A stretch of DNA of 64,000 nt. Source: a virus. The notes beneath the pieces were generated by a model that was not told the DNA's origin, ran no database searches, and saw nothing but the letters and a program-made list of their open reading frames with translations. Location: positions 1-64,000 of IMG/VR virus record IMGVR_UViG_3300032116_000089; one strand, given 5' to 3'. This document shows, piece after piece, positions 21,401 through 37,239 of this stretch. The translations under genes were made by a program, and so were the position numbers. Position 1 is the stretch's first letter; every line of letters starts with the position of its first letter.

Positions 21401-24400
21401 TTCAATAAGCCAGACGGAAGAGTAAGTGCCTGCTCTAAAATCCAAGAAGATTTGTAATTTTCAAGCGGCCATTCATATCCACTAGGTCTAGCCTGTCTAC
21501 GATATAAAAATACAGTTCCAGCTTCTGTTAATGTAAGAGGTGGAGCAACTCCACTATCATAAAGAACGGGTCTAAATGGAGCGCCGATAGCTAGTAAGTC
21601 ATCTTTGGAAGCTACAGACTTGCCAAACTTGTTTCCGCTACTTTGATAAAAACTGTCTGCTATTATTCTGAATCCATCATGATCTGTTTTTACTTGATCA
21701 GTTTCGTTTTTATTATATTCTACTTCTATAATTTCAGTTGGTATGTCTATTGCTTCGGAAGATCCAGATTTACCAGTTATGTTAATCACATATGGAGTAT
21801 TGGGTGCAAGTCCGGTGTATTTTCTTATTCCATAAAAGTGGCCGCTGTATGGCATTGGATCATATACGATTTGAGAACCGGATGCGTGTCCAAATGATCC
21901 ACTTGGGAAAGATAGATTAGTATAAGTATTCTTTGCCCTAAATATGCCACCATCTACGCAAGAGTCTGGATAATACCACTTAATTCCATGTATATCGATT
22001 ACGGCTTCTGAACATCTATTACTATTATTGGTTGAGCAAGAACCGTAGCATATGATATCAACTCCACGTATATTATCATCAGAGTCTACATAAGCATATT
22101 GATTGTCTTGCGCAGTAATATTTATTCCAACATTGTTATTTGTCCAATTTATAGAAGCACTTCTATTTGCTAGAGATGCTGAAATTGGATAATTTATAGT
22201 TACCAAATTAAGTGTACCGCTATCATATGCTATGTTTGGCTCATAACCATTTATGTACAATAATGTGCTATTATTTATACTATCTCCATAGCCACTGCCA
22301 TATATAAACATTGGCATGGTCGAGGAAGGATAGGCATTATATGATGCCGTTATACCTCTGGTCCTCAATGTTAAACTATTGTCAACAAAACCGGCATTTG
22401 GATCAGTTGCGTGTGAATATAGTATTACGCTGCCACTAGAAGGATAAACAGCTGGAGATATATACAATGGCATATATGTCTCTCTCATAAACTGTCCACT
22501 TACATATAGATTTAATCCTTCTGTACTAACAGAACCAATATTTAAAGTATGTAGATTCAATAAACCGGGGTTAGTATAAAATCCACTGCTATCAATGAAC
22601 AAATTGATATCATCTGGACTTGTAAATCTTTGCCCATCAACATATAATATAAGAGGTTTAGATCCAGAGCAAGACAGTGGTGCAAAAAGATTTAAATATG
22701 CAAATTGTTCATATTTTTCAACATTTGCGAAAAGATTTAATTGATTATTAAATGTATCGTTAACGAATATAGCTTCTTCTAGCCTTACATTTGCGCTATG
22801 TATCTTTATAAGAGAATTAATTGGTCTACCAGATGGATAAATAAGATCATACTGTAAAAACATATCATCAAAATCTTTAGAGAAATATTTTTCTCTAAAT
22901 TCTTTTGTATATGATTCTCTATCAAATACAGCCCATGGTTCAGATACGTCAAATAAGCTATCAAAAGTAAATTTGCTTGTTAACTTTCTAATACATCCAG
23001 AAGGCTCTAAATAATGTGTAGAACGATTAATCAGCCCAAACATTTTGCTCGGTCTATTATCAGACTCTTGATTTTTGGTATATAGACTGACAATTAGTTT
23101 TGGACCAACTTTGCCATCGTCCCAAACAATATCGCTGAACGTGTCGTGTTCAACTATAGTATCAACGCATATTGCATCATCATTAAATTGATATCCCTTT
23201 GGCAATGTTTTGCAAATTCTTGGAGCAATAGCATAAAATCTATCTTGATCTACAGATGGAATATTAGATAAATTGAATCTTAAAAAGTCATTTTCAATTT
23301 GAGTATGATATGCAACGCCCGACAAGTTCACGCTAGATGGTAATGTCAAATTTGTATAAGCGCTATATCCAGATCCATTATGCTTGAGATTAAATGATAA
23401 GAAATCATCTCCATTCTTCTTCTTAAAGAAGTCAAAATCTGGTGAAAATTGACATATTTTGTATGCCCCCAAATGCCATAAGTCAATGTCATCATCAATG
23501 TAAGAGTATTGATCAGATCTTATATTAGTAATAGAAGTATTGTTAAAATGCATTCTATGCGAATCAAAAAATGATCGCGCGCTGGTTTGCTTAAGAAACT
23601 TATTTAAGTTAGTGCTTTCAATAATATTACACTTACCATTAGAAGCACCAACCTCATGCAAAAATAATGGTAAAGGATTTTGAGCATTATAAACTTGAGA
23701 ATATCCTATAGCTAGTGCTGGAGATCCAGACAAAATGTATGTTGTTATTGTTGATGAGGTTGAACGTAAGTTGTTGAATCCAGATACTAATTCATTATCT
23801 GTATAAAGTTTATATGTGTAATTACCATCATCATTATAAGTAATCAAAATCGACAATGGAAATTGATATTGTGATATTAATATACTATCAGACAAGGTTA
23901 CTATGGTATCATCATCTTTTCGAACTTTTAGTTTTAAAGTGCCATCTTCGCAGATTAGTGCAAGTGAATACTTAGTGCTGTTTTCATATGAAAATATTAA
24001 ACAGTTGTTAAGATCATTAGTAGATACTTTGTCTGGAGTAAATCTTAAAAATAAAGCAAAGCCTAGTGGATTATCTGGATTATCATAATCATCAAAAGAA
24101 TCGTTGTCAAGAACATACATCGTAAGTTCGTTGGTCGATGAAATTCTAGCCGCTCTATCAAAAGCATCAAATATATTATTTTTCCATACTATTGATTTAT
24201 AATCTGTTGTAATATCATTAAATAATTGATTTGAAGAATATCTCCAACCAAAATTTTCAAGAATGTCAAAACTAGATGACGCTTGACCAGCATAATCTCC
24301 ATTAGTATCAAAAATATCTACCCCATCAGTGTTGTGAAAATCGACATACGAAGATAAAAATGGATTCAGAGCAGTTTTATGATTAAAAGAATAATCAAAT

Positions 24401-26574
24401 GTTAATGGATTAAAATCTCCACCAGATAGCACATTACCATCTACACCCCTCCATCTTCGACTGTAATTAGATTTAATGTAGTTAGGAGTTGTAAGTCCAG
24501 TAACTATACCGCTTAATGGAATATTAGTGTTTATTTGATTTCCACCAACATTAGTAGATGGAAGTAATTTAATTTTTTTGTTAACCGCTGACTTATTGGC
24601 TGGACTTCCTAGAGTATGCATCATCATTGCATTCGATGGTTTATAATATATAACCATCTTGATATTTGCTATAGATGCTCCACTTGGTATTGGAGAAATA
24701 TCTATATAAAGATGCTCAAAAAAAGAACTGACAGAATATTTAGTAAATCCTAAAACATTTAGATTTTGATATATATCTAGTGGTATCGTATATTCTTTGA
24801 ATGATGTACTATCTACTAATATAGAGTCTTCTATAATGTAGTGATCACCAAGCCTTGATGTATCTCTATTATAATATTCTGATTGATCTGAAAGACTTGT
24901 GCTAGATAAGCCAAATGTATTAAAACTGAATCCGGATACGTTTGGAACATTATTACTATCAAATATCAATGATCCACTATTTTGTAGGAATCCGCCAACA
25001 GGACTTGTGATATTTAACAGTTTGTCATCACTATAACCTACTACGTCTATAGCATAGTCTGGATTGCTGGAGTGTTTTTTAGCTATAATTTTTAGTTCTA
25101 TTGAGTCTATGTCAAAAAAGTGATCGTTATATGGATAATTTGTTAGTTCTGCATTGTCGAAGTCGCTATTCCCGCCAAACGCGAAAGCGCCATTTATATA
25201 TTGATCGCTTGAGTCTCTTTCTGGTTTAGTATCAAATTTAAGTATTAATCTGCCGCTATCTTGTACTGGAGAAGTATTTAACAGTGTAATGTAATCACTA
25301 GTTTTGTCGTTTCTAATTTTCTGCAATAAATAAACAGCGCCAGAATTAGATATGTTTGTATATTCAGTATCATCAACGGTTGTTTTCCAGATACTGTTGG
25401 ACTCTGGATATATGCCATTATTATATGTGTTGTTAAATATTGTATTTGGTAACAGAGTTCTAACAACTCTTTCAGATTTATCTCTTACTTTAGAATAAAA
25501 ATTAAGATAATTATTCTTCAATACGCCGACACCGCCGCTATTGCCTATTTCTATTGCAGAAATGCGAAGACCATTAAATAAGTTTGGATTGTCTACGTTG
25601 GTGTATATTCCGCTTACACAAGTGTATTCATAGCCAAAGTTGAACTTAGTATCAAATGGTCGATTGTTACAAGTATAGGATAAGCTAAGAGATAAAGTAT
25701 ATGGTTGATTTTCTAAGAATAAGGGGCCACCAGAATCCATATATGGAAATCCAGATTCCCAAGATGGCTTGTTTACATTGTTTACAACAGGTTGAGAGAT
25801 ATAAGTTGTAAAATTATTATCACCTTTTATTTGAATATCTTCATATTGTATAATCAAATTACCACTTGGATCCTCAAGCTTAATATCATAAATGCCATAC
25901 TGTTGTGGGATGCGTAATACATAATCATCAAATGGTGCAGATGCCCTCAAAGCTAAGTAACTTAATTTTGGATTAGCTAGTGGATAAGATACGCGAAATT
26001 TATACTCTAGATCGCCAGAACTAAAGACTTGATTTGGAAATATGACAGATTGATTATCGTCAGAAAGCAATTTGCCATCTGTATTGTTATCGGTATAGTT
26101 ATTCGAAAAAACACCCTCATCTAATTTTTGATATGCTGGAGAAGATGTGATTTGAATATTGTTGCTAGTAATCTTATTTGTAAATGATACATCACCTATT
26201 GGATATAGTTTTGACGAAGCTCTAAAGCTTGGCTTGTGTCCAGCAAACTTATCAGTAAACGTATTCTTAAAATTAGAAGACGATGATAATCTAGAATTGA
26301 CTCTAAATTCTATATTCGAATAGCCACGAATATCGCCAACAGCCATATCCTTCAATTCTTCAGACGGTGCAAAGTCCATATTTTCATTGGCAAGCAATCT
26401 AGATGATCCAGACACAAAAGAAAAAACATTTCTGTATATTGACTCTTTTGTGAGCAATTTAGATACAGAAGATATTCTATTAGGCAGTCCGTGATTGATT
26501 GCGGCAGTTGCCAACAGTCTGGAATTTCCAGATAGATATTCTCTATTATTAGTGCTACAGGATATAGAACTCAT
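15481..26574 (-). CDS. giant 3697-aa tail-tip adhesin-like protein with a LamG-like domain and seven FG-GAP repeats
   Basis: Directly follows the tape measure. FG-GAP blades start KFGKSVA, QFGHSLD, RFGHAVS, RLGYSVD, LFGYAVC, QFGHDID and RFGKTIY, mostly with GAP and GxVYxF partners. ConA/LamG-like segment near 23620-24070. Confidence 0.7.
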   Translation of the reverse strand: MSSISCSTNNREYLSGNSRLLATAAINHGLPNRISSVSKLLTKESIYRNVFSFVSGSSRLLANENMDFAPSEELKDMAVGDIRGYSNIEFRVNSRLSSSSNFKNTFTDKFAGHKPSFRASSKLYPIGDVSFTNKITSNNIQITSSPAYQKLDEGVFSNNYTDNNTDGKLLSDDNQSVIFPNQVFSSGDLEYKFRVSYPLANPKLSYLALRASAPFDDYVLRIPQQYGIYDIKLEDPSGNLIIQYEDIQIKGDNNFTTYISQPVVNNVNKPSWESGFPYMDSGGPLFLENQPYTLSLSLSYTCNNRPFDTKFNFGYEYTCVSGIYTNVDNPNLFNGLRISAIEIGNSGGVGVLKNNYLNFYSKVRDKSERVVRTLLPNTIFNNTYNNGIYPESNSIWKTTVDDTEYTNISNSGAVYLLQKIRNDKTSDYITLLNTSPVQDSGRLILKFDTKPERDSSDQYINGAFAFGGNSDFDNAELTNYPYNDHFFDIDSIELKIIAKKHSSNPDYAIDVVGYSDDKLLNITSPVGGFLQNSGSLIFDSNNVPNVSGFSFNTFGLSSTSLSDQSEYYNRDTSRLGDHYIIEDSILVDSTSFKEYTIPLDIYQNLNVLGFTKYSVSSFFEHLYIDISPIPSGASIANIKMVIYYKPSNAMMMHTLGSPANKSAVNKKIKLLPSTNVGGNQINTNIPLSGIVTGLTTPNYIKSNYSRRWRGVDGNVLSGGDFNPLTFDYSFNHKTALNPFLSSYVDFHNTDGVDIFDTNGDYAGQASSSFDILENFGWRYSSNQLFNDITTDYKSIVWKNNIFDAFDRAARISSTNELTMYVLDNDSFDDYDNPDNPLGFALFLRFTPDKVSTNDLNNCLIFSYENSTKYSLALICEDGTLKLKVRKDDDTIVTLSDSILISQYQFPLSILITYNDDGNYTYKLYTDNELVSGFNNLRSTSSTITTYILSGSPALAIGYSQVYNAQNPLPLFLHEVGASNGKCNIIESTNLNKFLKQTSARSFFDSHRMHFNNTSITNIRSDQYSYIDDDIDLWHLGAYKICQFSPDFDFFKKKNGDDFLSFNLKHNGSGYSAYTNLTLPSSVNLSGVAYHTQIENDFLRFNLSNIPSVDQDRFYAIAPRICKTLPKGYQFNDDAICVDTIVEHDTFSDIVWDDGKVGPKLIVSLYTKNQESDNRPSKMFGLINRSTHYLEPSGCIRKLTSKFTFDSLFDVSEPWAVFDRESYTKEFREKYFSKDFDDMFLQYDLIYPSGRPINSLIKIHSANVRLEEAIFVNDTFNNQLNLFANVEKYEQFAYLNLFAPLSCSGSKPLILYVDGQRFTSPDDINLFIDSSGFYTNPGLLNLHTLNIGSVSTEGLNLYVSGQFMRETYMPLYISPAVYPSSGSVILYSHATDPNAGFVDNSLTLRTRGITASYNAYPSSTMPMFIYGSGYGDSINNSTLLYINGYEPNIAYDSGTLNLVTINYPISASLANRSASINWTNNNVGINITAQDNQYAYVDSDDNIRGVDIICYGSCSTNNSNRCSEAVIDIHGIKWYYPDSCVDGGIFRAKNTYTNLSFPSGSFGHASGSQIVYDPMPYSGHFYGIRKYTGLAPNTPYVINITGKSGSSEAIDIPTEIIEVEYNKNETDQVKTDHDGFRIIADSFYQSSGNKFGKSVASKDDLLAIGAPFRPVLYDSGVAPPLTLTEAGTVFLYRRQARPSGYEWPLENYKSSWILEQALTLPSGLLKDYSTAKEVKYKDLPFNPIMTTWYVGQEGRQFGHSLDLAVNHNKKSVGEDSQQTLVVGGPSAKWTPRLFDNGDPSGVNIGLMIFSDEFKHEIPVVINKSVVILTYRDVLEAVADKDLLFRYFSDPRIKFDLRLMICPPKANNQELSQTYFPEKPDFIALRDISRNVGYPVSREIIDNSVSGMKATFFESFPYDESKLNNNIPPVLGICIDNSVSLGRESLEPAIDEFINFYKSYSFASGLVDSFGVRSSGLVVEYLSDGDANWIEMSKSLLSEVLDTGKMIQEDRFRFFTNKVGIFNTTLSEFNVPPESGGKVYIFEKESGSWNLIQEIRSENVTYTTPDRFGHAVSISDDGEVVVIGSPYTTQAVNIYERKDDQRDLYYSLLAGWVESNYYDKYKTAVTKYRERPSLEAAYALYIQLDPEHKFKSRVDLNIQEYQKIHTFGYERMQPIGSWTFIPQEFAPTSRLGYSVDTNEDGSIVVAGAPTDSLNFYNDADVYHVKGGTKFQTLYSDPNELIPSVIDPAWSAAVNAGSVHVFQSRKYFPHNRAVEIGRFGNLHELSSDNTLDSGHFGYLSQIFSDKNFTKTEFTDSKIPTDAGLAFIITPSADAISISNEVFDNIARWLALGDRNLVLVANDPIWERNGLYAKSNDILNKLLERLQSRMRIVPARNQYESLPNGYTDFNNVIPSMIPQGATSTFTNRMPLKASGVADIKIYFQYEEEHMPCEEKVLCDPEGEKEQIQTRCEMPLKNYGDLRAGWNDYCCKPTARGFATVIYKKNWPFIFGSFVPDCGPNPPPPKPTKNQEPIPLLAAAEKVIQEIIYPEVPAQFRRDRKFNIIYENTTYYELGDQQDENLVFAWSADHDMYDSIEYNITSNLTSEPFFTPDEGGVLQARGISKIDITPYISKKTVSDKTYFGVEHQYPSNKTSSVSVLASTFTESEACLLLEDENISFYVNLVSSSKTQRGQSVIAQLGGWTNRPSFAAGYDKSILRSIFLNNRNGVDENVLTESLDGRYNVAWVAAINSQPSNYELLLLKNWLNIGNKKLVITCDGSLESVQQAQILCNKLGIDIQPVYLSHLNKYQKSKIYYFRIDRDHQVGGRFFNDPRYYIDEFYLPFQTPAECYPLALSEGGIGFALSDEVIYDEIPKENIDTLWSMNAGIVRLTVPTQAGSGYKLFITTSADTPSEIGSLKFNIAQASVAPSFPVNGANGSYSIPELDTNGQIYDSLPIVTAFFGEDSQSSATKTIKFQNASNESFNEIYISCAIPRVHSGTDIIPRSIKLVGISGVLIPILTKVSSTPIAIPTDEFDIVQVSDKQEERKEYVDVIRPISTDNTKYCSDRCMFLGNQLIDDGPVVAAQEIEILSPFDAGYARSRITVITDSSMIQGRYVVDNNGVIPQETYSFIRSLYPETTFTSDNSGRQFDVYNKLISPERGSPSKYYLNSSLSGINRNFGGSGTVTASIINKYESQYLPQYISKRPDLPWEGEKDEKVIARIRNEYISGFYYEQFNHASTARFSGIIDGVRYTDAPIGGGLPQLLKDKGYDYLDLDHFVSGYPGDLFGYAVCVHKDKIMAGSPFSAFSSETITPWDSGVSLHLGNDGGAGAVYMFERSGNLLWQYSKKFRPESLMGQLSGVNSYSDQFGHDIDIKNDTIIIGAPNHKFDTFYENVFDSGAFARKNFNGQFDIPQRNIFDLGISGNRLLLETSGINADKAGAIYLYENKVIDWENKTRSWSLVEKFVSESPNSSGERFGKTIYLSRPYRSDADYTVFAGVDNASGNNILNLGAVYAKDIMLKRQNPSLPNSGSWINARLFGTRDIYGEPTIVLNFTNSGNNKPYYSSGIIIPNSRGEIFLEVSGQDPSIRGFIAHRPYIESVLGYYQYGVLLDSVMSLYIDGKNLEPSSQLPLIMNAENSAYVYNTIGLYNGGVSGISDSLPSGLYLFNQSESGVSLSSSLTLTTSGTWNSSDALNLRVRGK

Positions 26575-26575
26575 A

Positions 26576-29500
26576 TTATACTATTCCGCCATCTGTTCGT
26601 TTTAGTCTTCCGCCGTCTACAACCTTAAACTGATTTTCAATAAGTCCAAATAGTTCCTGTTTTACTTGACCGGTAAGAGCCTTTAACAATCCGCCGTCAT
26701 TTAAATTAATACTTACGCTAGTAGAATCTAACTTAATACTTATCTTTGTATCTCTGAGTGATTGAACATTTTCTGATAATACTCTATTGAAGTTTTCTAA
26801 AGCTGCAACAAAATTTGTCATTCCTTGACTTGGTGCTTCTGGGCTTGAACTTCCTTCTTGGCGATATCTTACCATTCCTCCTCTAGCCATCATGGCGGCA
26901 CCACCATCACTATTAGATACACCAGCGCCGCCGTTCATAGCTTGTAAAATTTGTAAATTATTACCACGCTGAACTGCACCCCTATTCACCACAAATTCAC
27001 CGGGAGTCAACATGGCTGGTACGGTATCTGTGCCGCGAGGCACAAAAATACCTCTATTTGCGTATATTAAACCACCACGGGCTTTAGCGACAGCTGGCAT
27101 ATTTTCAGCCCTATTAGCTTTTTCGGCTGCTTTGTTGCCTCTTTCTAAGACTTCGTTAAATTTTAATTGAGCGCTATTCACATTTATGGTGGCTGTTTGA
27201 ACTTGCATTTCTGCCATTTCTGCTCCAAGTTCTCCAGTTTCTCCGAGCATACCGCCCAATTCACGTAGTCTAGCTTTACTAGCTTCTTCTTCAGCCGTAG
27301 TACCGGCCATAACCTGTGCTGCTCTCATATCTGTTACGCCTCTGGCTGATAATGCAGCACTAGAAGCGGCCTCAGTTAATCCGCCAGCCCCAGCCAATCG
27401 TTGACCATATAAAGTTTGAACTCCAGCATCTTGTTGACGTTTAATGTCTAGGGCGGCAGTTCCCAATGCTTCTGCTCCGTATTGATTCATTAATCTTTGA
27501 TCACCACTAGCGATAGCGGCTGTAGCGCCAACTGCGGATTGCTGTTTAAAGAATGCTTCCACATCGCCCTTGACTAACGACTCCATAGAATCTTTTTCAA
27601 GTTTATTCTTTTCTTCTGTTATCTTTAGTTGTTCTTCCTCTAATTTAATTAGCCCCCTAATAGTATCAATTTGTGTTTTATATGCTTTTTGTAAATCTTT
27701 TTGTGTTTCATCAGCAGTAACTCCAGCGGTTCCAGCCATACCACCTTGAGATGTTCTTTGAGATTCAATTTGCGAAAACCTTCCGCGAATTTCTGCATTT
27801 CTGCGTCTTAATTCACCAGCATCACCAGTTCGCATAGATGTCAAGCCAAGCCTAGAAGCTTCTACGTTAGATTTAGCTAATAAATTTCCTCTCTTTTCTT
27901 GCATACTAACAGCTTGGCCGCCATACTTAGCTTGTATTTCTCTACCTTCCGACAGTAAATCTATCGCCTCTTGTTGTGCTGCTACAAGATTTCTTTCAGC
28001 ATCAATTCGTTTCTTAGTAAACTCAGTAAGAACCTGTTCAGCTTTTGCTCTTTCTTGAGCAATTTTCTGAATAGGTTCAAACATTTTCTTTTGTTCTTCT
28101 GTCAACTTATCTCCAAAAGCGCTCAAGTCTCCAGCAATTATTTTATCTATATCAGAATCCTCTAAGTTCATATTCTTAACAACTTTTGTGAGGTTTTCTC
28201 TAGCTTCGTCAGATACTCCCGGCCCCAAACCGCTAGCAAGTTCTTCCGCCATTCTTTTCTTTATCTCATCAGAACTTAGATCTTTGAAATCAGCTTCTTT
28301 CATAGAATTTTTGACATTTTCAAATGCTTGATTGTAATTGGCTTGAGCTTGAGTAAATGCGGCTACATTTCCTTCAAACTTAGCAACCATTTGTGGAGAT
28401 ACTCCCATGCCTCGTAAATTATTAGCAACATTTTGTGCGGCATCTCTTATCTCGTCTGGATTCATAGCTTGTGCAGCGCTACTAATAGATTCCTGTAAAA
28501 ATTCAACATCGCTGACAAAAGTAGATCCACCAACTTCTAATCCAGCGGTAAATCTAGACATACTAGCAGAGAGTGCAGAAGCCGTTGCGTCAGCTGATCT
28601 AAGCCCTAAATTCATAGCTTGAAAAGATTCTTTCGCACGTTTTACTTCTTTTTCAATATTCTTGATTTCTTCATTGACTTGATCCAACTGTTCTGCCATT
28701 TGTGCTGCTGCCGACCTAGCGGCTTCAGCACCCTTCTTATCGCCAGCAAGATCCAAATCTGATCCCAAGACCCTCAATTCAGATATTCTACTTTGAAGAT
28801 CTCCGGTAGCTTCTTTTCTAATATCTTCTGTTTTGCCGCCTCTAACAATTCGCGATCTAATAGCAGCTTGTCTAGCTGGACTTTCTATATTAAATGCTTC
28901 TGCTTGCTGTTTTGCTGAAGAATTTATTTGTTCAACATTTTCTTTACTAAGTCTTTCATTTCTTACAGATGAGCTTTCTCCTAATAAGCCTCCCAGTGTA
29001 TAAACATCTCTTAGTGCGCCTTCTCCACCAAGTAATCCTGCTATTTGACCTATTGGTCCAGCAAAAGATCCTTTAGCGGCAGAACCTAAACTGCCAGCTA
29101 CAGAACCCCCAGACAACAACCCATTATATTGAGATCTATTTTTTAAATTTTCACGAACAAAGTCAGTTGTTCTTTTTTCTTGCTTTGACACTTCAGCGGT
29201 TTTGGATCTTATTCTGGACAATGCTTCTGATGCAGTTATACTTCCATTGCTAAAGTCATTCATAGCGGAAGTTGCTGTTTTTTGCGCTTGTTCTAGAGCC
29301 TTTTGAGTTTTTACTGCTCCAGCCTGTGCTGCGGCTAAAGCAACAGCACTGTCATATGTAGCACCACCAAACAGAGTTCCAATACCGGCTAAAAATCTGT
29401 CTCCAGCTTCACCAAATATACCAGATATTGCACCTGTCACTAGAGTAGCTACACCAGCACCTAGTGCGGCACCTATGGCTGCACCAATTGGTCCACCAAG

Positions 29501-32500
29501 TATAAAACCTATGGCGGCACCGGCAGTTGCGCCACCGGCTCTTACAACATTTGCGCCTTCTAGTCCAGCTTTTTTACCGGCAATTTCTTCTGCTTTTGCG
29601 ACATTTCCGCTGTCAATTGCCCCCTTTAGTTGATTATCGTAATCATATAAACTAGTTATCACAGAATTAAAAGCTTGAGTGGCAATATAAGCAGATCCTG
29701 CGATGGCAATAAGTGGACCAGCAAGTGCAGTTGCATTTTGAGTAAGAGCGCCAATTGAAGAACTAGCAGATCCTAATGAACTACCTAAAGAAGTTAAACC
29801 TTTGCCAAGCGTGGGAGATAAACTAGATACAGAAGATCCCGCTCTCATTAAACCTCTACCGCCTTGAAGTGCAGCACTTCTTCCGAATTTACTTGCTCCT
29901 TTTATACCTTTCCCACCAAGAAAATCCATCATACTTTGTGAATTTAATTTTACACCAAATGCCTCTAAGGCAAATCCTACCGCTGTAATAGTTGTGATTA
30001 ACCCCAAGATGCTATGAGCCATTTTTAATGCGCCAGATGAAGATTCATCAAGTGCTGGTAAAAATCCTTGAACTATACTAACGCCCATAGAAGCTACCAT
30101 CATTTTATTACCAGCCGCAACACCCATTGCGCTTTTTGCGGCAGAGTTTTGCGCTTTGGTATTAGCGTTAACAGATGCGGTATTGGTATTTACACCACCA
30201 ACTTTGCTACCCATAGTTGCACCCATAGTAGCAAAACCACCACTTGGAGTAGCAGACGGTGATGTAGTTTGGATCGGCCTCCTTGGAGAAGGTGCGGCTG
30301 ATGGTATGGATATAGGATTGCTAGCTTTAATGTCTCTTGAATTTTTAGCAAGAGCATTAACATATTGTTCTGCGGCACTTCGTATTTTATCTTGTGACGC
30401 TCCACTTTTCTGTAGTTGTTGTAAGTTATAGAACATACTGTCTACTACATCTATATTGACCGCAACAGAGCGTCGATTTAGTTTGGCATTCTCATCTATG
30501 ATTGCAGAAAAGCCGGGTAACACACTGTTTAAATAAACTAACTGTCTTTGATATTTTTGTGTAACGCTTTCACCACCAACGGCGCTTTTTGCTAATGAAT
30601 TCAAACCTAGAGCAAGTTTTGTAAAACCTCCAGCAGTAACTCTATCCAAAACTGATGCCATCTTCAGTGCAGCTACATCTAATTTTCTAGCACCTTCAAA
30701 AGACAATTTTTGTGCTGGAAGATCAAAAGCGGGTCTAGCGGGCTTGGCTCCGCTGCCAGATGTACCGGTAGCAAATCGCTGTACAATTCCGCCCTTGGCA
30801 TATTTACCAACTTTATTCATACGGTTTAGATTACCGTAACCAATCCTCTGAGCGGATGAACGATTTACAACAAACTCACCGGGAGTTAATAGGGCTGGAA
30901 CAGTATCTGTACCAACACCTCCACCAGTAGCATATCTGCGGCGTCTTATAGTTGCATCAACAATTTTCTTTTCTCTGCTTCTACCTTCATAATCTCCAAT
31001 AGATTTTCCGGTTTTCTTTTTCACCGCTTCATCAATTCTATCTTGTCTTTCAAACTTTGCCGCCTCAACAGCATCAAGTAAGGGAGAACTTATTCTCTTT
31101 GGTAATAAATTCATTTTTTTGATTTCAGAATCCGACATGATAAAATCTCGCCATCCTGTTGATTGGCGTTGATCAAGCATATCTTTTAGTTTTTCTACTG
31201 TTATATTTCGTTGTTTTGCTGCCGCAATAAGAGAATCTTCATCAAATGCCATACTTCGCTTGGGCAATTCATTGCCGACCCCACCACCATCGGCAAATTT
31301 TTGAATTATACCGCCAAAGTGTTTTCGTTGACCAGTTGTTCTTAAACTAACACCGCCCTTATAGCCATTAATAATATCATTAGCTAATTTTCTTTGTATA
31401 TTACCACCAACTTCACCGTAACTACGCTTGGCTTCAGCTTTAATCAACTTATTTACTTGTGCTTGACTACCAAACAAAGTCCCAAGCTTGTCTTTATTTT
31501 GAGATATTGCAGATCTTGGGAAGTCAAAATTTGCTCTACCACCAGCGGCTGTTGCTCCCGTAAAAGCTGAGATCATCGCTTCAAATAAATAACCTTCTAT
31601 AGTACTTCTGACTTGATTATCCGACTGAATTTTGCCAACTATGCCGGTCATCAATTTTTCATTTGTGTTTAATCCCGGCGGTAAATCAAGTAATCCTTGA
31701 GATACAACAGAATTGATAGTAGAATTTACTCCAGTAGAAATACCATCTAAAAATCCCTTATGAGCAGCTGCTGCATATTTAGCATTATTTTCTAAATTTC
31801 TTTTTCCTTCTTCCATTCCGGGATAGAATACTGGATAAGTAGCGGGATTTATAACAGCGTTAACACCGCCTTTGATTTCGTCTGGCGACAAACCGGCTTG
31901 AGAGGCAGAAATCTTAGCATATTTATTGCCAGCAGGAAGTGTGAATGGGAATGGTTGAGTTGCAGAATAACCTCCTTCAGATCCCTTTGGTGGAGTTAAT
32001 ACAAATGCGCCTATCTGCCCATCATTTACATCAAACTGTATGTTACCAGCACCAGCGACATCTTTATTTACGCCATATTTTCCATCTCTTTTTTTTGTAC
32101 TTTTTAGTTTTTGTGTGGCACCAACGATAGCTCTACCGCCGTTAGCATAACGATTTTGGTTCATAGCCGCCAAAGTACCAGCACCCATTTTATTAACACT
32201 GCTCTTGCGTATTACGAATTCTCCGGGTTGTAACATCGCTGGAACAGTATCTCTATTACCACTGCCGGGAACTAATCCGCCTCTAGCAAAACCAAGAACT
32301 TTACCGCCCTTGTTGTAAGTTCTTCCAGATGTTGCGCCGCTCATTATACCACCAAAAAAACCTCCTAAACCTTTAGCAATTTTGAAAGCCGCAAGAGCGG
32401 CCAATAAAGGCAGTAGAGGTTTAATAGAATCAGCAATCTTGATTAAAGCCGATGCCAATGACAACGCAGTATTTGCCATTACTTGGAAAGTAGATGTTTC

Positions 32501-33661
32501 TGTTATACTACGAATTAGAGCAAGGAATTCTTCTTTTACCTTCATAATTCTAATAGCAAGTGCCGCTTGTGCAGATGCGGCGTCATTAGTAAGAGAATCA
32601 TTTGCTTTTGTTGCAACATTCAAAGCCTGTTGAGCAGTCGTAAATTGCTGTAAAAGTGGCAACACTTTGCCAATTTGACGAAAGCCACCAAGTTCTTCAG
32701 CGATGCTAATAAATGTGAGGTCGCCTTCTCCTAATCCAGCTAAAGCCTGACTTAATCGTTTTATGGCTTCATAGGGACCAACGAACTTACCATTCAAATC
32801 TACAAGTTCTACACCAAACTGTTTTAAGAATTCAATAGTTTTTGGTCGCTGAATACGTGTGAAGATAGTACGTAAACCAGTACCAATACTTTCTGCACTT
32901 TCTCGCGTTGTTGCTCTAACGCTAGTAAATAGTGCCAGTAGTTCATTTAAACTGCCGCCAGAAGCTTTAAACACGCCGCCAGTTCTACGAATAACGTCAA
33001 TTAAGTCACTTGCTTCTACAGCGAAAGCGCCAGCAACAGCATTAATGGACCCTAACTGTGCTTCTAAAGCGCCTACACCTTGTTGAAATTGTGCTAAAAT
33101 AGCAATAGCACCTTCTGCTGTTTCAGTAATACTATCAAAGTTAGGAGCAAGCGCAGCTTTTGCTAGAGTTCTTAAAGCTACGGCAGTATCTTCAGCAGTT
33201 AAACCGGCCTGTGCTAATACTGTAGAAACTTCTAATAAATCTGAGGATGCAACGCCAAAACCGGTAGACAAACTAGTAATTTGTTTAGTAAGGCCACGAA
33301 GCTGACTAATGCTTTTACCAGTTACCTGAGATACTTTAATCAATTGACGTTCAAAGTCAATAGCATCTTGTACAGCATTTCCAAGAGTGTTAGTAAATAA
33401 ACTAACTGCTCTGGTTGCTACAGAAAAAGCAGCAAACCGCCGAACAGAAAGGGAAAAAGCTTTTCCCATTCTTTCAGCGGCTGTTGTTGCTTGATTGGTA
33501 GATTGAGTTACTTGCTGTAATTGACGCTGTGCTTGTGCAGACCCCTGCACTTGTACATTAACATTAACCCCACTTAACTGGGATTGTATTTGTTGTACAA
33601 CTTGCCTAACGTTATTTGGAGCTTGTAATTGTAATTGTGCGGTCAGTACGAATCTTGACAT
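26576..33661 (-). CDS. tail tape measure protein (TP901-type core) with extra domains
   Basis: 2361 aa, Ala/Gln-rich and helical. Core motifs DFERQLIKVSQVTG and TRESAESIGTGLRTIFTRI, hydrophobic Gly/Ala segments, three DTVPAxLxPGEFV motifs, AAGGAG RBS. Confidence 0.92.
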   Translation of the reverse strand: MSRFVLTAQLQLQAPNNVRQVVQQIQSQLSGVNVNVQVQGSAQAQRQLQQVTQSTNQATTAAERMGKAFSLSVRRFAAFSVATRAVSLFTNTLGNAVQDAIDFERQLIKVSQVTGKSISQLRGLTKQITSLSTGFGVASSDLLEVSTVLAQAGLTAEDTAVALRTLAKAALAPNFDSITETAEGAIAILAQFQQGVGALEAQLGSINAVAGAFAVEASDLIDVIRRTGGVFKASGGSLNELLALFTSVRATTRESAESIGTGLRTIFTRIQRPKTIEFLKQFGVELVDLNGKFVGPYEAIKRLSQALAGLGEGDLTFISIAEELGGFRQIGKVLPLLQQFTTAQQALNVATKANDSLTNDAASAQAALAIRIMKVKEEFLALIRSITETSTFQVMANTALSLASALIKIADSIKPLLPLLAALAAFKIAKGLGGFFGGIMSGATSGRTYNKGGKVLGFARGGLVPGSGNRDTVPAMLQPGEFVIRKSSVNKMGAGTLAAMNQNRYANGGRAIVGATQKLKSTKKRDGKYGVNKDVAGAGNIQFDVNDGQIGAFVLTPPKGSEGGYSATQPFPFTLPAGNKYAKISASQAGLSPDEIKGGVNAVINPATYPVFYPGMEEGKRNLENNAKYAAAAHKGFLDGISTGVNSTINSVVSQGLLDLPPGLNTNEKLMTGIVGKIQSDNQVRSTIEGYLFEAMISAFTGATAAGGRANFDFPRSAISQNKDKLGTLFGSQAQVNKLIKAEAKRSYGEVGGNIQRKLANDIINGYKGGVSLRTTGQRKHFGGIIQKFADGGGVGNELPKRSMAFDEDSLIAAAKQRNITVEKLKDMLDQRQSTGWRDFIMSDSEIKKMNLLPKRISSPLLDAVEAAKFERQDRIDEAVKKKTGKSIGDYEGRSREKKIVDATIRRRRYATGGGVGTDTVPALLTPGEFVVNRSSAQRIGYGNLNRMNKVGKYAKGGIVQRFATGTSGSGAKPARPAFDLPAQKLSFEGARKLDVAALKMASVLDRVTAGGFTKLALGLNSLAKSAVGGESVTQKYQRQLVYLNSVLPGFSAIIDENAKLNRRSVAVNIDVVDSMFYNLQQLQKSGASQDKIRSAAEQYVNALAKNSRDIKASNPISIPSAAPSPRRPIQTTSPSATPSGGFATMGATMGSKVGGVNTNTASVNANTKAQNSAAKSAMGVAAGNKMMVASMGVSIVQGFLPALDESSSGALKMAHSILGLITTITAVGFALEAFGVKLNSQSMMDFLGGKGIKGASKFGRSAALQGGRGLMRAGSSVSSLSPTLGKGLTSLGSSLGSASSSIGALTQNATALAGPLIAIAGSAYIATQAFNSVITSLYDYDNQLKGAIDSGNVAKAEEIAGKKAGLEGANVVRAGGATAGAAIGFILGGPIGAAIGAALGAGVATLVTGAISGIFGEAGDRFLAGIGTLFGGATYDSAVALAAAQAGAVKTQKALEQAQKTATSAMNDFSNGSITASEALSRIRSKTAEVSKQEKRTTDFVRENLKNRSQYNGLLSGGSVAGSLGSAAKGSFAGPIGQIAGLLGGEGALRDVYTLGGLLGESSSVRNERLSKENVEQINSSAKQQAEAFNIESPARQAAIRSRIVRGGKTEDIRKEATGDLQSRISELRVLGSDLDLAGDKKGAEAARSAAAQMAEQLDQVNEEIKNIEKEVKRAKESFQAMNLGLRSADATASALSASMSRFTAGLEVGGSTFVSDVEFLQESISSAAQAMNPDEIRDAAQNVANNLRGMGVSPQMVAKFEGNVAAFTQAQANYNQAFENVKNSMKEADFKDLSSDEIKKRMAEELASGLGPGVSDEARENLTKVVKNMNLEDSDIDKIIAGDLSAFGDKLTEEQKKMFEPIQKIAQERAKAEQVLTEFTKKRIDAERNLVAAQQEAIDLLSEGREIQAKYGGQAVSMQEKRGNLLAKSNVEASRLGLTSMRTGDAGELRRRNAEIRGRFSQIESQRTSQGGMAGTAGVTADETQKDLQKAYKTQIDTIRGLIKLEEEQLKITEEKNKLEKDSMESLVKGDVEAFFKQQSAVGATAAIASGDQRLMNQYGAEALGTAALDIKRQQDAGVQTLYGQRLAGAGGLTEAASSAALSARGVTDMRAAQVMAGTTAEEEASKARLRELGGMLGETGELGAEMAEMQVQTATINVNSAQLKFNEVLERGNKAAEKANRAENMPAVAKARGGLIYANRGIFVPRGTDTVPAMLTPGEFVVNRGAVQRGNNLQILQAMNGGAGVSNSDGGAAMMARGGMVRYRQEGSSSPEAPSQGMTNFVAALENFNRVLSENVQSLRDTKISIKLDSTSVSINLNDGGLLKALTGQVKQELFGLIENQFKVVDGGRLKRTDGGIV

Positions 33662-33693: not shown

Positions 33694-34581
33694 CTATTCA
33701 CTTTCCGTTGCTATTGACTTCTTTTTTTTAGTTGGTTTTTCTGACTGCTCTGTATCGTCTGGCTTTATTTCTTTGTTGTCATCATCTAGATAAGTGACTT
33801 CTGGTATATAATTACCATTTTCGTCCAACGGATTACCATCCTTATCTACCCTATTTCCTTGATCGTTTAGCCAGTATCCTTGCTTGTCTATTCTGCGACC
33901 ATCTGTGTCTACAGTCTCACCCTTGTCGTTAACTAAGCTAAGATCCTCATTAACGAAATGGAACATTTTAAGGAATTTATTTTCTGGTAATTTGGCTTCG
34001 AAATCCTTATCAACAGAATACATCATTCCGGCTAATGTTGATGCCGCCATAAAAGCGATTTCATCATCTCCGCGCTCTTTATAGTCTTCTATATCATTAT
34101 ACACTTTCTGACCATTTTCGTAAAACGCAGAATTAGCAACTAGATAATCAAAACGAACATTATCTGATATGGACTCTGCGGTATTTTGCTCTAGACTCAT
34201 TTTTTCAGCAATCAAGTCACGAAGTTCATTTCGCTTAATTCTCATCTGTATAGCAATTCGTTTGCCCTCAGAAGCTTTTAGCTTTTTACCGCCGTTACCA
34301 CTAACGTAAAGTTGTTTTTCTAAATCGGCAATTTCTTGAACAGTTTTCTTTTGTTCTTCGTCCTTACCTTCGTCCCAAATACCTTGCTGCTTCATGAACT
34401 TTTCAAGTTCTTTCTTAGTCATAATTCCATCCCTTACGCAATCTGTCCAAGCTTTTGCTCCAACTCTTTGGGCTTGAGAGATTAAATTACTACTGGGGCG
34501 TTTAACAGTTAGTTTAATTGTTTCTTCTTTTCCATTTCGTGTTCTTTTAACTTCTACTGATTTTTCCTTTTCCTGTGACAT
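33694..34581 (-). CDS. putative tail assembly chaperone
   Basis: Charged helical protein immediately upstream of the tape measure. ATG 34581 has a GGAGG RBS. Confidence 0.55.
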   Translation of the reverse strand: MSQEKEKSVEVKRTRNGKEETIKLTVKRPSSNLISQAQRVGAKAWTDCVRDGIMTKKELEKFMKQQGIWDEGKDEEQKKTVQEIADLEKQLYVSGNGGKKLKASEGKRIAIQMRIKRNELRDLIAEKMSLEQNTAESISDNVRFDYLVANSAFYENGQKVYNDIEDYKERGDDEIAFMAASTLAGMMYSVDKDFEAKLPENKFLKMFHFVNEDLSLVNDKGETVDTDGRRIDKQGYWLNDQGNRVDKDGNPLDENGNYIPEVTYLDDDNKEIKPDDTEQSEKPTKKKKSIATESE

Positions 34582-34593
34582 ATTTTCCTCCAA

Positions 34594-34929
34594 TTATTTA
34601 TTGTTAGGGGTAACTACGGGTATTTTGATTTGATATCTTAACCATTCTATATCATATTGAGCTAATTCAGCATCAATATTACGAGCTTGATTATTTCCAC
34701 GATCTAGTATTTCTGATCTCACTTTATTGTATAAAGTCTTCATTAACTCTTGGTCTTTTGTAAGCTGTCCACCAGACTCGCTGTTCCATAAAAAACTAAA
34801 ATTTTCTTCTATTGTACTTAATGCGCCTATCATAGTTGTCTGAATTTTCTTTTTAAGTATCTTGGACAATCTATCTTTTGATTCAGCTTTATATTTTGAA
34901 TCTCTTATTTTCTTATAATCTGGTTCCAT
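34594..34929 (-). CDS. hypothetical protein in the tail chaperone region
   Basis: 111-aa helical ORF with AGGAGG RBS. Confidence 0.6.
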   Translation of the reverse strand: MEPDYKKIRDSKYKAESKDRLSKILKKKIQTTMIGALSTIEENFSFLWNSESGGQLTKDQELMKTLYNKVRSEILDRGNNQARNIDAELAQYDIEWLRYQIKIPVVTPNNK

Positions 34930-34930
34930 A

Positions 34931-35971
34931 TTATCCTCCTATTTTTCCTCTCATTTGATTAGTAGCCATCATCTGTATATTGCGTTTTTGATCTGGTAAA
35001 TTTTGATCTTGTATTGTTCCATGTTTTTCAATAGCGGACTGTCTTTGTTTTTTAATCATTTTGCCCATTGGGTCATTCATATCATTAATTTTTGAAGCAC
35101 GATCCTTATTAGAGACTATGAAAACTTCTGATGAATTTTTAATCTTTTCATTATTGGTTTCAGTGTCAAATTCTTTTTCTAATCTTTCTTTTTCACGTTT
35201 TTGATTTTGGATTATAAACCAACCGTCAAGCATATCATCGTCTTCTATAACTTCCTTTTCTGGACATTCTAATGACTCTTGTATATTATCATACATTTGT
35301 GACCAGACTAACAAATTTTTTTGATTATATGTCAATTCAGTATTGGGGGGATTGCAAAATAGTGGGGAGTTTGAATTTTCTCTTACTACCCATAAAGATT
35401 TCCAAGGGTCATTGCGGGCTATGTCTCTAGACTTTTTTTCTGATAAAAAGTGTGACTGCCACTCATCTATGACATATTGCAATGATATATCTTCAAAATC
35501 ATAGATCTTGTTTTCACGATATGTCGTATTTTTGATTATCCACATGAGTCTTTCAGTGGATGCAATGCCCTCGCATGTATTTTGATGATACATGTATTTT
35601 TTGTTTAGATGAGAAGATAACTGTGACTCACCTGCGCGAAGATATTTTCTTATACTATTGACCATATTTTTATCCCTACGAGCGTTGTAAATTTCTACTT
35701 TTAAACGCTCAATATCCTTTTTTAACCCTTCTTCTCTTTTATCGTCGTGAGGTGTCCATAGTTCATTTTCTAACATCCACTCATTAACATCTTCTTCGGT
35801 CATCATTTCTTCTGACAGGGCGTTATCATAGGCTCGTTGATATATTTGACAAGATTTAAAAGATTGATCAATTGTGAGTGGGCGTACTTCTAGATCTATA
35901 TCCTTATAATTTATGAATACTTTACCAGATCTTACCATAGAAACGAAAAACTCCCGCTCATGATGCTTCAT
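34931..35971 (-). CDS. putative tail assembly chaperone, paralogue of 33694-34581 with a distinct C-terminal domain
   Basis: 346 aa between tail tube and tape measure. Shares the MT...W...I..L...Y and QNTxExI...Y.ED pattern with the downstream chaperone. Confidence 0.5.
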   Translation of the reverse strand: MKHHEREFFVSMVRSGKVFINYKDIDLEVRPLTIDQSFKSCQIYQRAYDNALSEEMMTEEDVNEWMLENELWTPHDDKREEGLKKDIERLKVEIYNARRDKNMVNSIRKYLRAGESQLSSHLNKKYMYHQNTCEGIASTERLMWIIKNTTYRENKIYDFEDISLQYVIDEWQSHFLSEKKSRDIARNDPWKSLWVVRENSNSPLFCNPPNTELTYNQKNLLVWSQMYDNIQESLECPEKEVIEDDDMLDGWFIIQNQKREKERLEKEFDTETNNEKIKNSSEVFIVSNKDRASKINDMNDPMGKMIKKQRQSAIEKHGTIQDQNLPDQKRNIQMMATNQMRGKIGG

Positions 35972-35994
35972 ACAGCTTTCTCATAAGCGGGAGT
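35945..35994 (-). terminator. 14-bp hairpin plus U-tract downstream of the tail tube gene, with the next start codon in its loop
   Basis: mRNA reads ACUCCCGCUUAUGA-[GAAAGCUGUAUGAAGCA]-UCAUGAGCGGGAGU-UUUUCGUUU. Stem is fully paired with one G-U. Confidence 0.7.
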
Positions 35995-35999
35995 CTCAT
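35958..35999 (-). CDS. candidate 13-aa leader peptide MRLPLMRKLYEAS
   Basis: AAGGA 7 nt upstream of ATG 35999, TGA at 35960-35958. Covers the 5' arm and loop of the hairpin. Confidence 0.35.
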   Translation of the reverse strand: MRLPLMRKLYEAS

Positions 36000-36042
36000 T
36001 TTTGTATCCTTAAAAATTCCTAATTATTTAGCTATGAGGTAA

Positions 36043-37239
36043 TCAAGGAGTACCGTTATAAATTGGCTCATAGTCTGGATTGTCTTTACTAGCAATTAAA
36101 TCTTGGGGATGTGTTACAGTTAAACTATTATAGGTAGAATAACTATATGTGATAGTAGCATTGCCACCACCAGCATCACCACCAGTATAATTTACTGATG
36201 ATAATCTACTCTTAGTACCTAAATCAAAAACAGTACCATCGTGTAGTCTTATAACGATTGTTTCTTCTGCTGTATTGTTGCCGTAGTTCTTTTCGCCAAC
36301 GTCGAAGCCGTCTTTACTGGTATCGCCTTCTTCGTAAGCGTTGATAAAATCGCCACTGACAGCAATAACTTCAAACTCAGAAGTTACTTCTACGGGGAAA
36401 TTTGCAAATCTATAGTATGGTGATTTTCTGCCAAGTTCTTGAATACTTTCTCTGTTTAAATCGCAGTTAATAGAGCAATTCTGTACGTGTACTCTATTTG
36501 TATTGTTAGAGCTATTGTAAGCATTACCCGCCGTGGCTGACTGAGTTACACCAAAAATTGATAATGGTAATATAGAATTTTTAATATCTACATTTTCTCT
36601 ACGCTGAACGCCACCGTAGAATGATCCAGTTTGTAAATTCTTTGGAGCATCCAAACCGTCGCCAGCAGTAGTAGAATCATCAAGTTGATTTGCTACTGAG
36701 GCTGAAAACTTTGTTGGAGTAATTGACCAAGCTTTATGATTACCAACTAGTGTTAACGACTCTGTGCAATTGCCATCTACTGGGAGAGTAAAGCCAATAC
36801 TACTAACATACATGCCGCTCATTTGTACTTCGACTAGGGCGTTGGCGTCGGTGTCGCCAATATTTTCTACAGTCTCTGGGAAAATACCTAGATAAACATT
36901 TGTTCTCTGTTTTGAACGTGCCACAAGAGATAATTTAGCAGCGCTAGTCAAAGTTTCTTCATCAACTCCGCATGTAGCAACGTGATACATCAGAGGATAA
37001 CCATCAAGAACCTTTTCTAAGGTTACTTCAATATCTGGTACGCCTTCGATATTTTCATAAATATGGATCTGACCTAATTCGAAAACTTGTTCTAGATTGA
37101 ATGTTGTGTTTAGGCCAACGCTCTGAACGCCATGAAGCACCTGCACGTTGTTACTGGTAACAGTTAGTGTGCCAGCATTATCATATAGTGGCTCAAGAGC
37201 AACGGCTTGGCAAGCGTAGAAAATTCTATTGTTGGGCAT
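36043..37239 (-). CDS. major tail tube protein
   Basis: 398 aa with GVQSVGLNTTFNLEQVFELGQ and a second similar unit VQNCSINCDLNRESIQELGR. Lies between neck genes and chaperones, with AGGAGA RBS, its own promoter motif and a downstream hairpin. Confidence 0.75.
   Translation of the reverse strand: MPNNRIFYACQAVALEPLYDNAGTLTVTSNNVQVLHGVQSVGLNTTFNLEQVFELGQIHIYENIEGVPDIEVTLEKVLDGYPLMYHVATCGVDEETLTSAAKLSLVARSKQRTNVYLGIFPETVENIGDTDANALVEVQMSGMYVSSIGFTLPVDGNCTESLTLVGNHKAWSITPTKFSASVANQLDDSTTAGDGLDAPKNLQTGSFYGGVQRRENVDIKNSILPLSIFGVTQSATAGNAYNSSNNTNRVHVQNCSINCDLNRESIQELGRKSPYYRFANFPVEVTSEFEVIAVSGDFINAYEEGDTSKDGFDVGEKNYGNNTAEETIVIRLHDGTVFDLGTKSRLSSVNYTGGDAGGGNATITYSYSTYNSLTVTHPQDLIASKDNPDYEPIYNGTP

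Follow-up and report, generated by a model that had tools for sequence, protein, structure and literature searches.

A conserved glycine-flanked joint module borders exchangeable cassettes in a phage tail tape measure protein

Tape measure proteins of long-tailed phages are usually viewed as rulers and channel formers that carry at most one embedded lysin. Processing has been reported for SPP1 gp18. The lambda tape measure protein gpH is cut in a glycine-rich region near residue 690-730, yielding gpH* and the ~14-kDa fragment gpHC; residues 818-849 of gpHC form a trimeric helix on gpI, and the stretch from about residue 690 to 817, which includes the module described in this study, is structurally unresolved (PMC12617516, PMC10721106). 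In T5, pb2 is cut during tail assembly after R1127, as mapped by mass spectrometry (FVPR|AEGGMMYPG...GEHGTEVV), into pb2* and pb2C, the latter of which carries a muralytic motif and remains in the tail tip (PMC10038345). Here we analyze the tape measure gene of an uncultured long-tailed phage, located on the minus strand of a 64,000-nucleotide stretch of viral DNA (IMG/VR record IMGVR_UViG_3300032116_000089, positions 1 to 64,000; hereafter the window). Three copies of one conserved joint module fence two slots within the encoded protein, and related phages carry unrelated segments, which we refer to as cassettes, in these slots.

Three joint modules in a tape measure protein

The open reading frame (ORF) encodes a 2361-residue protein followed by a stop codon, according to the ORF list and the translation. 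The protein matches the Pfam family PhageMin_Tail (PF10145) over residues 126-312 with an E-value of 1.2e-25 and 91 bits, above the cut-off of 33.2, and five PHROG tape-measure families match its first 400-800 residues with E-values of 1e-11 to 1e-19. It has 1970 homologs in the protein database, with lengths of 2000-2700 residues, many of them annotated as TP901-family tape measure proteins, and a glycine-zipper stretch can be read from the translation at residues ~1170-1450. The product is a phage tail tape measure protein of the TP901 / PhageMin_Tail type.

A sequence-only reading of the window had picked out a series of glycine-containing motifs and three copies of a longer core in this protein, and had proposed that the motifs bracket cargo domains. 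All of these elements are present at the residues it listed, and its nucleotide coordinates agree with ours to within a few bases. Exact matches to the core DTVPA[ML]L[TQ]PGEFV[IV] occur at residues 471-484 (DTVPAMLQPGEFVI), 919-932 (DTVPALLTPGEFVV) and 2212-2225 (DTVPAMLTPGEFVV), corresponding to window positions 32210-32251, 30866-30907 and 26987-27028. The shorter motifs are YNKGG (residue 449), FARGG (458), YANGG (505), FADGG (789), YATGG (910), YAKGG (954), KARGG (2193) and MARGG (2258). The pattern [FY]AxGG is found five times, compared with a mean of 0.19 in 5000 shuffles (shuffle maximum 4), and the looser pattern [FYKMH]AxGG eight times, compared with 0.51, a count that no shuffle matched.

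Aligning these regions reveals that motifs and cores belong to a single unit of ~60-75 residues, present in three copies that we term M1, M2 and M3 (Table 1). The unit consists of [FY]AxGG, 3-17 residues, G-x-DTVPAxLxPGEFV, ~20 residues that include G-x-G-x-L-x-x-M-N, and a closing [FY]AxGG. The motifs therefore bracket the module itself rather than the cargo, as seven of the eight lie at module flanks and only FADGG 789 stands alone; the cassettes sit between modules. Throughout the family, M1, M2 and M3 each retain their own position-specific sequence.

One PHROG of unknown function matches the joint module three times, Pfam holds no model for it, and we found no description of it in the literature searched, including searches that combined the core motif with "tape measure". 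AlphaFold2 (AF2) modeling of residues 440-800, using 42 aligned homologs, gave a predicted local distance difference test (pLDDT) score of ~40 for M1, and modeling of residues 2186-2361 gave a pLDDT below 50 for M3; a trimer prediction of the latter stretch scored 0.07 against a mark of 0.42, which speaks neither for nor against a trimer. As the joint is predicted to lack a fold of its own, it most likely works in the tail as a linear element for docking or processing and not as a globular domain. Judging from these models, it most likely gains structure only in the assembled tail.

Hidden Markov models (HMMs) of the module, built from 354 and 1017 copies, match lambda gpH at residues 725-787 with 27.4 and 29.8 bits, respectively (E about 1e-10), and a three-sequence profile compared with all PDB sequences gave a weak match to residues 735-784 of the lambda tape measure chain 8iyk_H. 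The matching part of gpH, residues 733-785, reads FATGG ... PAGIVHRGEFV ... GVGNLYRLMRGYATGG and ends in GYATGG. It is present as a single copy at 86-92% of the gpH length. Pfam covers gpH only at residues 54-256 and 627-701, which leaves the module stretch unannotated. On the strength of these profile matches, we judge the joint module to be homologous to gpH 725-787.

Table 1. Features of the tape measure gene and its product, with positions in the window
Feature	Position	Strand	Basis
Tape measure gene	26576..33661	(-)	ORF list; Pfam PhageMin_Tail; PHROG; homologs
Conserved N-terminal domain, aa 1-440	32342..33661	(-)	In 236/250 compared proteins; top identity 95%; length fixed
Joint module M1, aa 441-510 (YNKGG, FARGG, DTVPAMLQPGEFVI, YANGG)	32132..32341	(-)	Three-module alignment; kept in all homologs
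Variable cassette B1, aa 511-660, predicted beta-rich domain	31682..32131	(-)	Common to only 16-26 of ~250 relatives
Cassette B2, aa 661-796, ends in orphan joint FADGG (789)	31274..31681	(-)	In 66-84 relatives, 30-86% identity
Inserted cassette B3, aa 797-905, ends RRRRYATGG	30947..31273	(-)	Absent from closest B1/B2 relatives P0042, P0016
Joint module M2, aa 906-966 (YATGG, DTVPALLTPGEFVV, YAKGG)	30764..30946	(-)	119/119 homologs, 86% identity
Second variable slot C1, aa 967-1170	30152..30763	(-)	Only ~11-25 relatives; best match 57% identical
Ruler body, aa 1171-2185, with hydrophobic glycine-zipper segments followed by coiled-coil-like sequence	27107..30151	(-)	Translation; 40-80% identity
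Joint module M3, aa 2186-2262 (KARGG, FVPRGTDTVPAMLTPGEFVV, MARGG)	26876..27106	(-)	Three-module alignment
C-terminal tail, aa 2263-2361 (helix, hairpin, helix)	26579..26875	(-)	AF2, low confidence

Exchange of cassettes at the joints

To obtain a conservation profile, the protein was tiled against 119 homologs. The profile drops sharply at residues ~510, ~900 and ~966. Residues 1-510 are found in 116-119 of the homologs at 72-96% identity, and M1 and M2 are found in every one of them at 83-86% identity, M2 reaching the upper value. In contrast, tiles over residues 511-900 are present in 5-46 homologs, with 45-59% identity where present, and those over residues 961-1170 in 9-14, with 36-43% identity. 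The rest of the protein is widely common to the homologs, at 40-80% identity. This is the pattern that the sequence-only reading had anticipated, with cargo varying while the motifs stay fixed, and the transitions are residue-sharp at YAxGG. Homologs resemble one another up to the ...MNxNRYAxGG of M1 and then instantly diverge into at least six cassette types, and M2 is almost invariant, with unrelated sequence flanking it on either side. Nearly every homolog has its M1 core at residue 471, and the distance from M3 to the C-terminus is always 147-179 residues, whereas the spacing between M1 and M2 ranges from 275 to 679 residues.

The first slot also records an insertion. In many relatives, the block that ends in ...QKFADGG in this protein is joined directly to the GVGTDTVPA of M2; here, the 109-residue cassette B3 sits between two joint copies. 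The orphan FADGG 789 exists because the insertion of B3 left a duplicated joint. An extra orphan FAxGG joint that divides the slot in two is found in 65 of 114 homologs.

B3 is 99% identical over its 109 residues to the homolog P0008, a protein that is only 63% identical overall. The nearest relative changes along the rest of the protein as well: it is P0018 for the N-terminus (95%), P0042 for B1/B2 (81-86%), P0003 for C1 (57%), P0004 for C2 (66%), P0005 and P0002 for C4 (81%), P0018 and P0003 for M3 (96-97%) and P0003 for the C-terminal tail (98%). Such block-wise change, together with the near-identity of B3 in an otherwise diverged homolog, is a signature of recombination, and it lends support to the earlier suggestion that the motifs are recombination joints that allow the tape measure to carry exchangeable domains. 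At the protein level M2 is 86-95% identical to its counterparts in homologs (87-95% in the block-wise comparison), but its DNA identity to related viral loci is only 68-79%, with exact runs of 14-38 nt, which indicates that the joint is kept by purifying selection on the protein and not by recent copying.

Distribution of the module and gene setting

We searched 1.84 billion cluster representatives with the module profile and obtained 12,990 matching proteins at E ≤ 0.001, 783 of them at E ≤ 1e-30. The top matches are giants of 3000-7872 residues with up to 10-11 matched stretches. One of these, P0121 (7794 residues), has an N-terminal domain 55% identical to the one described here and contains ten modules by HMM scan, separated by gaps of ~900-1200 residues; the inter-module segments show no detectable similarity among themselves. 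When modules and cassettes as well as two of the giant relatives were searched against Pfam, PhageMin_Tail was the only match, and a search for small proteins consisting of the module alone gave just five matches.

Among 50,697 cultured-phage records, the module falls within an annotated tape measure gene in 345, each in one place by tblastn. The carriers are mostly cluster-B mycobacteriophages, and also include phages of Gordonia, Streptomyces, Nodularia and Ralstonia as well as T4-like cyanophages. According to the sequence-only reading, tape measures with this module usually carry one copy near the C-terminus; lambda gpH and the cultured records agree with this as the common case, but multi-copy proteins exist beyond the one studied here. 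The 2095-residue protein of mycobacteriophage Thonko (L046:865-7152) has two modules by HMM, at residues ~940-1010 and 1696-1781, and the 3312-residue tape measure of Nodularia phage vB_NspS-kac65v162 (L047:6337-16275) has tandem modules at residues 891-948 and 986-1051, with a weak third. These multi-module phages mean that cultured experimental systems exist. In the cyanomyoviruses S-SM2 (L002:5002-7302) and S-SCSM1 (L003:3231-6083), the module gene follows gp26 and gp51, which is the position of T4 gp29, and is annotated as "transmembrane protein" or "lysozyme". The S-SCSM1 protein carries its module at residues 594-658, followed directly by a glucosaminidase domain at residues 697-816.

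The IMG/VR viral contig that contains the window is 90,427 bp long and estimated to be 57% complete; complete-genome relatives measure 159-167 kb, and one of them has terminal repeats. The gene neighborhood is a structural module, with weak major-head and fibre matches upstream and an FG-GAP protein downstream. The latter, a protein of 3697 residues, is encoded directly downstream of the tape measure gene (window 15481-26574, minus strand), with adjacent stop and start codons. Its sole database match is to FG-GAP repeats near residue 3361, and we presume that this very large protein belongs to the tail tip or a fibre. Upstream, four genes at window positions 33694-37239 (minus strand), encoding 299, 111, 346 and 398 residues, occupy the place expected for the tail tube and chaperones; none of them matches Pfam or PHROG at E ≤ 0.001, and the immediate neighbors of the tape measure gene likewise gave no Pfam or PHROG match.

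Possible cassette functions, processing and known systems

Given its architecture and the variation among its relatives, we consider it likely that this protein is a swappable-cassette tape measure, in which a conserved chassis offers two slots, three joint modules mark their borders, and passenger cassettes are exchanged at the joints. The chassis comprises the N-terminal PhageMin_Tail domain, the hydrophobic and coiled-coil ruler body and the C-terminal tail, with the two variable slots fenced by the glycine-flanked modules. Among related phages, unrelated cassettes are gained, lost and swapped precisely at the [FY]AxGG edges, and recombination inside the conserved sequence of the joints is the most likely mechanism. 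Strong, position-specific purifying selection acts on the joint, which most likely serves for docking or processing. We further hypothesize that the cassettes are passengers, probably expelled from the tail alongside the tape measure during infection, with the host envelope or cytoplasm as the target or site of their action. By analogy with known tape measure ejection, they would be injected with the DNA, as the sequence-only reading had also suggested. Precedents for passenger enzymes are T5 pb2C (PMC10038345) and the S-SCSM1 protein, with its module followed by a glucosaminidase.

The predicted structures of the cassettes differ from each other. For B1, AF2 yielded a confident beta-rich domain at residues 511-614 (pLDDT 84-95), after which a long helix follows. 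B2 is modeled as mostly helical with two short strands (pLDDT 67-86). Across 70 homologs with 30-86% identity, B2 conserves G690, E694, D713, [DE]743 and K745, so that the E ... D ... (D/E)xK residues of the PD-(D/E)xK nuclease type are conserved in order; the acid/lysine sites lie at window positions 31574-31582, 31523-31525 and 31427-31435 (residues 694, 713 and 743-745). B2 gave no Pfam match, and no nuclease appeared among the Foldseek or VIA matches of B2, searches that its long helices dominated. From its residue pattern, B2 appears to hold a conserved acid/lysine site with no assignable fold. For the cassettes in general, no fold rose above background in Foldseek (PDB and BFVD) or VIA-align and Pfam gave no match, and a search of the ESM Atlas with residues 510-795 led to unnamed viral clusters (best score 0.79) that provided no lead.

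Several points weigh against the view of the cassettes as passengers exchanged at the joints. No cassette has a recognizable enzymatic or binding fold, and we therefore only infer a role as passengers with a host function. The exact nucleotide runs shared within the joints are short, at 13-38 nt. The ruler body contains mosaic breaks too, at a distance from any module, which means that the joints are not the sole sites of recombination; they are the sharpest mosaic boundaries, though not the only ones. Because the alignments given to AF2 had little depth and almost no variation across the module, the low pLDDT may understate its structure.

The other half of the sequence-only proposal, that the motifs are protease cleavage sites, would turn the protein into a processed polyprotein. 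Each joint would be cut at maturation, the tail lumen would hold at least four polypeptides, and the cassettes would be freed as effectors at infection. We regard this as possible but doubtful. In its favor, the gpH stretch homologous to the module begins at FATGG 734, and the computed mass of gpH 1-733 is 79.8 kDa, close to the ~78-79 kDa reported for gpH* (PMC12617516), so that a gpH cut at or just before FATGG 734 is compatible, albeit unproven. The mapped T5 pb2 cut reads FVPR|AEGG, M3 holds both KARGG and FVPRG, and a basic-aromatic-A-x-G-G sequence terminates every cassette and module. A number of short homologs encoded on long contigs stop 8-25 residues past M1, and the related locus L024 has an in-frame TGA instead of the second Gly codon of a joint. 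However, the cleavage precedents are limited to single-site proteins, none of them multi-module, and the lambda cut has been placed to the glycine-rich zone and not to a residue. Neither T5 pb2 nor SPP1 gp18 has a module by HMM, which reduces the T5 case to a five-residue analogy. The short homologs may also be assembly errors, as several have frameshift-like tails.

No candidate protease of the lambda gpK kind emerged either. Prok-JAB, JAB and NLPC_P60 (gpK type only) were not found in the contig, nor were Prok-JAB and NLPC_P60 (gpK type only) in five relatives, two of which are 100% complete. A gpK-like JAB or NlpC/P60 protease that cuts after Gly-Gly is thus unsupported. Homology of T5 pb2 to the module was rejected as well, since the two HMMs gave no significant match, and what remains is the motif analogy of R|AEGG. 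We also set aside the "cleavage" of the JBD30 tape measure as a precedent, because it is a PeptideCutter prediction only (PMC11445458). Overall, cleavage at the joints is plausible on the precedent of lambda gpH and T5 pb2. Somewhat speculatively, the joints might be widespread, undescribed maturation sites that share the chemistry of gpH*/gpHC, in which case true polyproteins would load the tail lumen with changeable effectors ahead of the DNA; we entertain this idea tentatively.

The truncated relatives deserve a description of their own. At positions 3290-3310 of L024, the M1 joint reads KYKTG*, with TGA where the related locus L025 has the second Gly codon, GGA (KYKAGG), and the frame continues unchanged for at least 700 residues past it, through a further module. 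This TGA could be a nonsense mutation, a sequencing error, a read-through site or a natural split at the joint. Five or six short homologs stop 8-25 residues after a YAxGG joint, among them P0341, P0333, P0347 and P0365, which lie on contigs of 41-140 kb, and P0268; truncation by contig ends is unlikely for these five. Other short homologs end in Cys/Trp-rich, frameshift-like tails. The short homologs could be pieces able to work as separate proteins, or they could be errors.

The conservation within B2 also bears on a further explanation, according to which the fast-evolving slots contact envelope or inner-membrane proteins during channel formation, or evade host sensors, with the joints as structural anchors. 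We think this unlikely. Loci involved in host range or arms races typically show hypervariability and replacement of cassettes, no enzymatic fold was recognized in any cassette, and lambda gpH mutations are known that overcome ManYZ blocks (PMC12617516), all of which would fit such a host interface. Yet E694, D713 and [DE]743-x-K745 of B2 are strict in all 70 homologs, a pattern that seems better suited to an active site or a ligand site than to an interface that varies. Expansion of the ruler by internal duplication, with the modules as tandem-duplication relics and ordinary ruler between them, is very improbable: it would account for the recurrent module spacings of ~1000-1200 residues in giant relatives, but the inter-module segments of P0121 lack detectable similarity to one another, B1 is confidently predicted as a beta domain and not as helical ruler, the M1-to-M2 distance varies among close relatives whose chassis is otherwise fixed, and each module copy is position-specific across the family.

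For the swappable-cassette tape measure, several consequences follow. A conserved joint marks slots for the exchange of whole cassettes; it recurs in ~13,000 protein clusters, and lambda gpH has one copy. Delivery of the cassettes, above all as pieces released by cleavage, would make the tail lumen a second cargo route beside that of head-packaged ejection proteins. For the cleavage site of lambda gpH, a question that dates from 1983, the joint is a specific candidate that can be put to the test, and it may suit the engineering of phage tails as a natural place to insert passenger proteins.

Among known systems, lambda gpH is alike in carrying one module near its C-terminus, directly after the glycine-rich cut zone, and M3 is the equivalent position in the protein described here. 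The two differ in that gpH has a single module and no cassettes, whereas here three modules fence variable slots, and in their N-terminal families, TMP_2 and Tape_meas_lam_C in gpH as opposed to PhageMin_Tail. The C-terminal tail is equivalent by position to the C-terminal plugs gpHC and pb2C (PMC12617516, PMC10038345); outside the module, no homology between this tail and gpHC was detected. T5 pb2 shares an xAxGG-type site followed by a GE..VV stretch, but has a single site, no swappable cassettes and no match to the module HMMs.

Motif 3 of mycobacteriophage TM4, the SLT domain of P1 Sit and the glucosaminidase of Synechococcus phage S-SCSM1 are comparable as globular passengers that lie within or end a tape measure and are co-delivered with it (PMC9024508). 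They are recognizable cell-wall hydrolases at one fixed position, in contrast to the several exchangeable types without a recognized fold found here. A further parallel comes from the polyvalent proteins of phages and conjugative elements, reportedly described by Iyer, Burroughs, Anand, de Souza and Aravind in 2017. These, too, are giant polypeptides associated with virions or with transfer, in which variable effector domains follow one another, but their domains are recognizably enzymatic and they are usually head-packaged or MuF-linked, whereas here the carrier is a tape measure and a conserved joint lies between the units. The architecture is a variation on known themes, combining features of tape measures with embedded domains and of the tape measure processing of lambda and T5.

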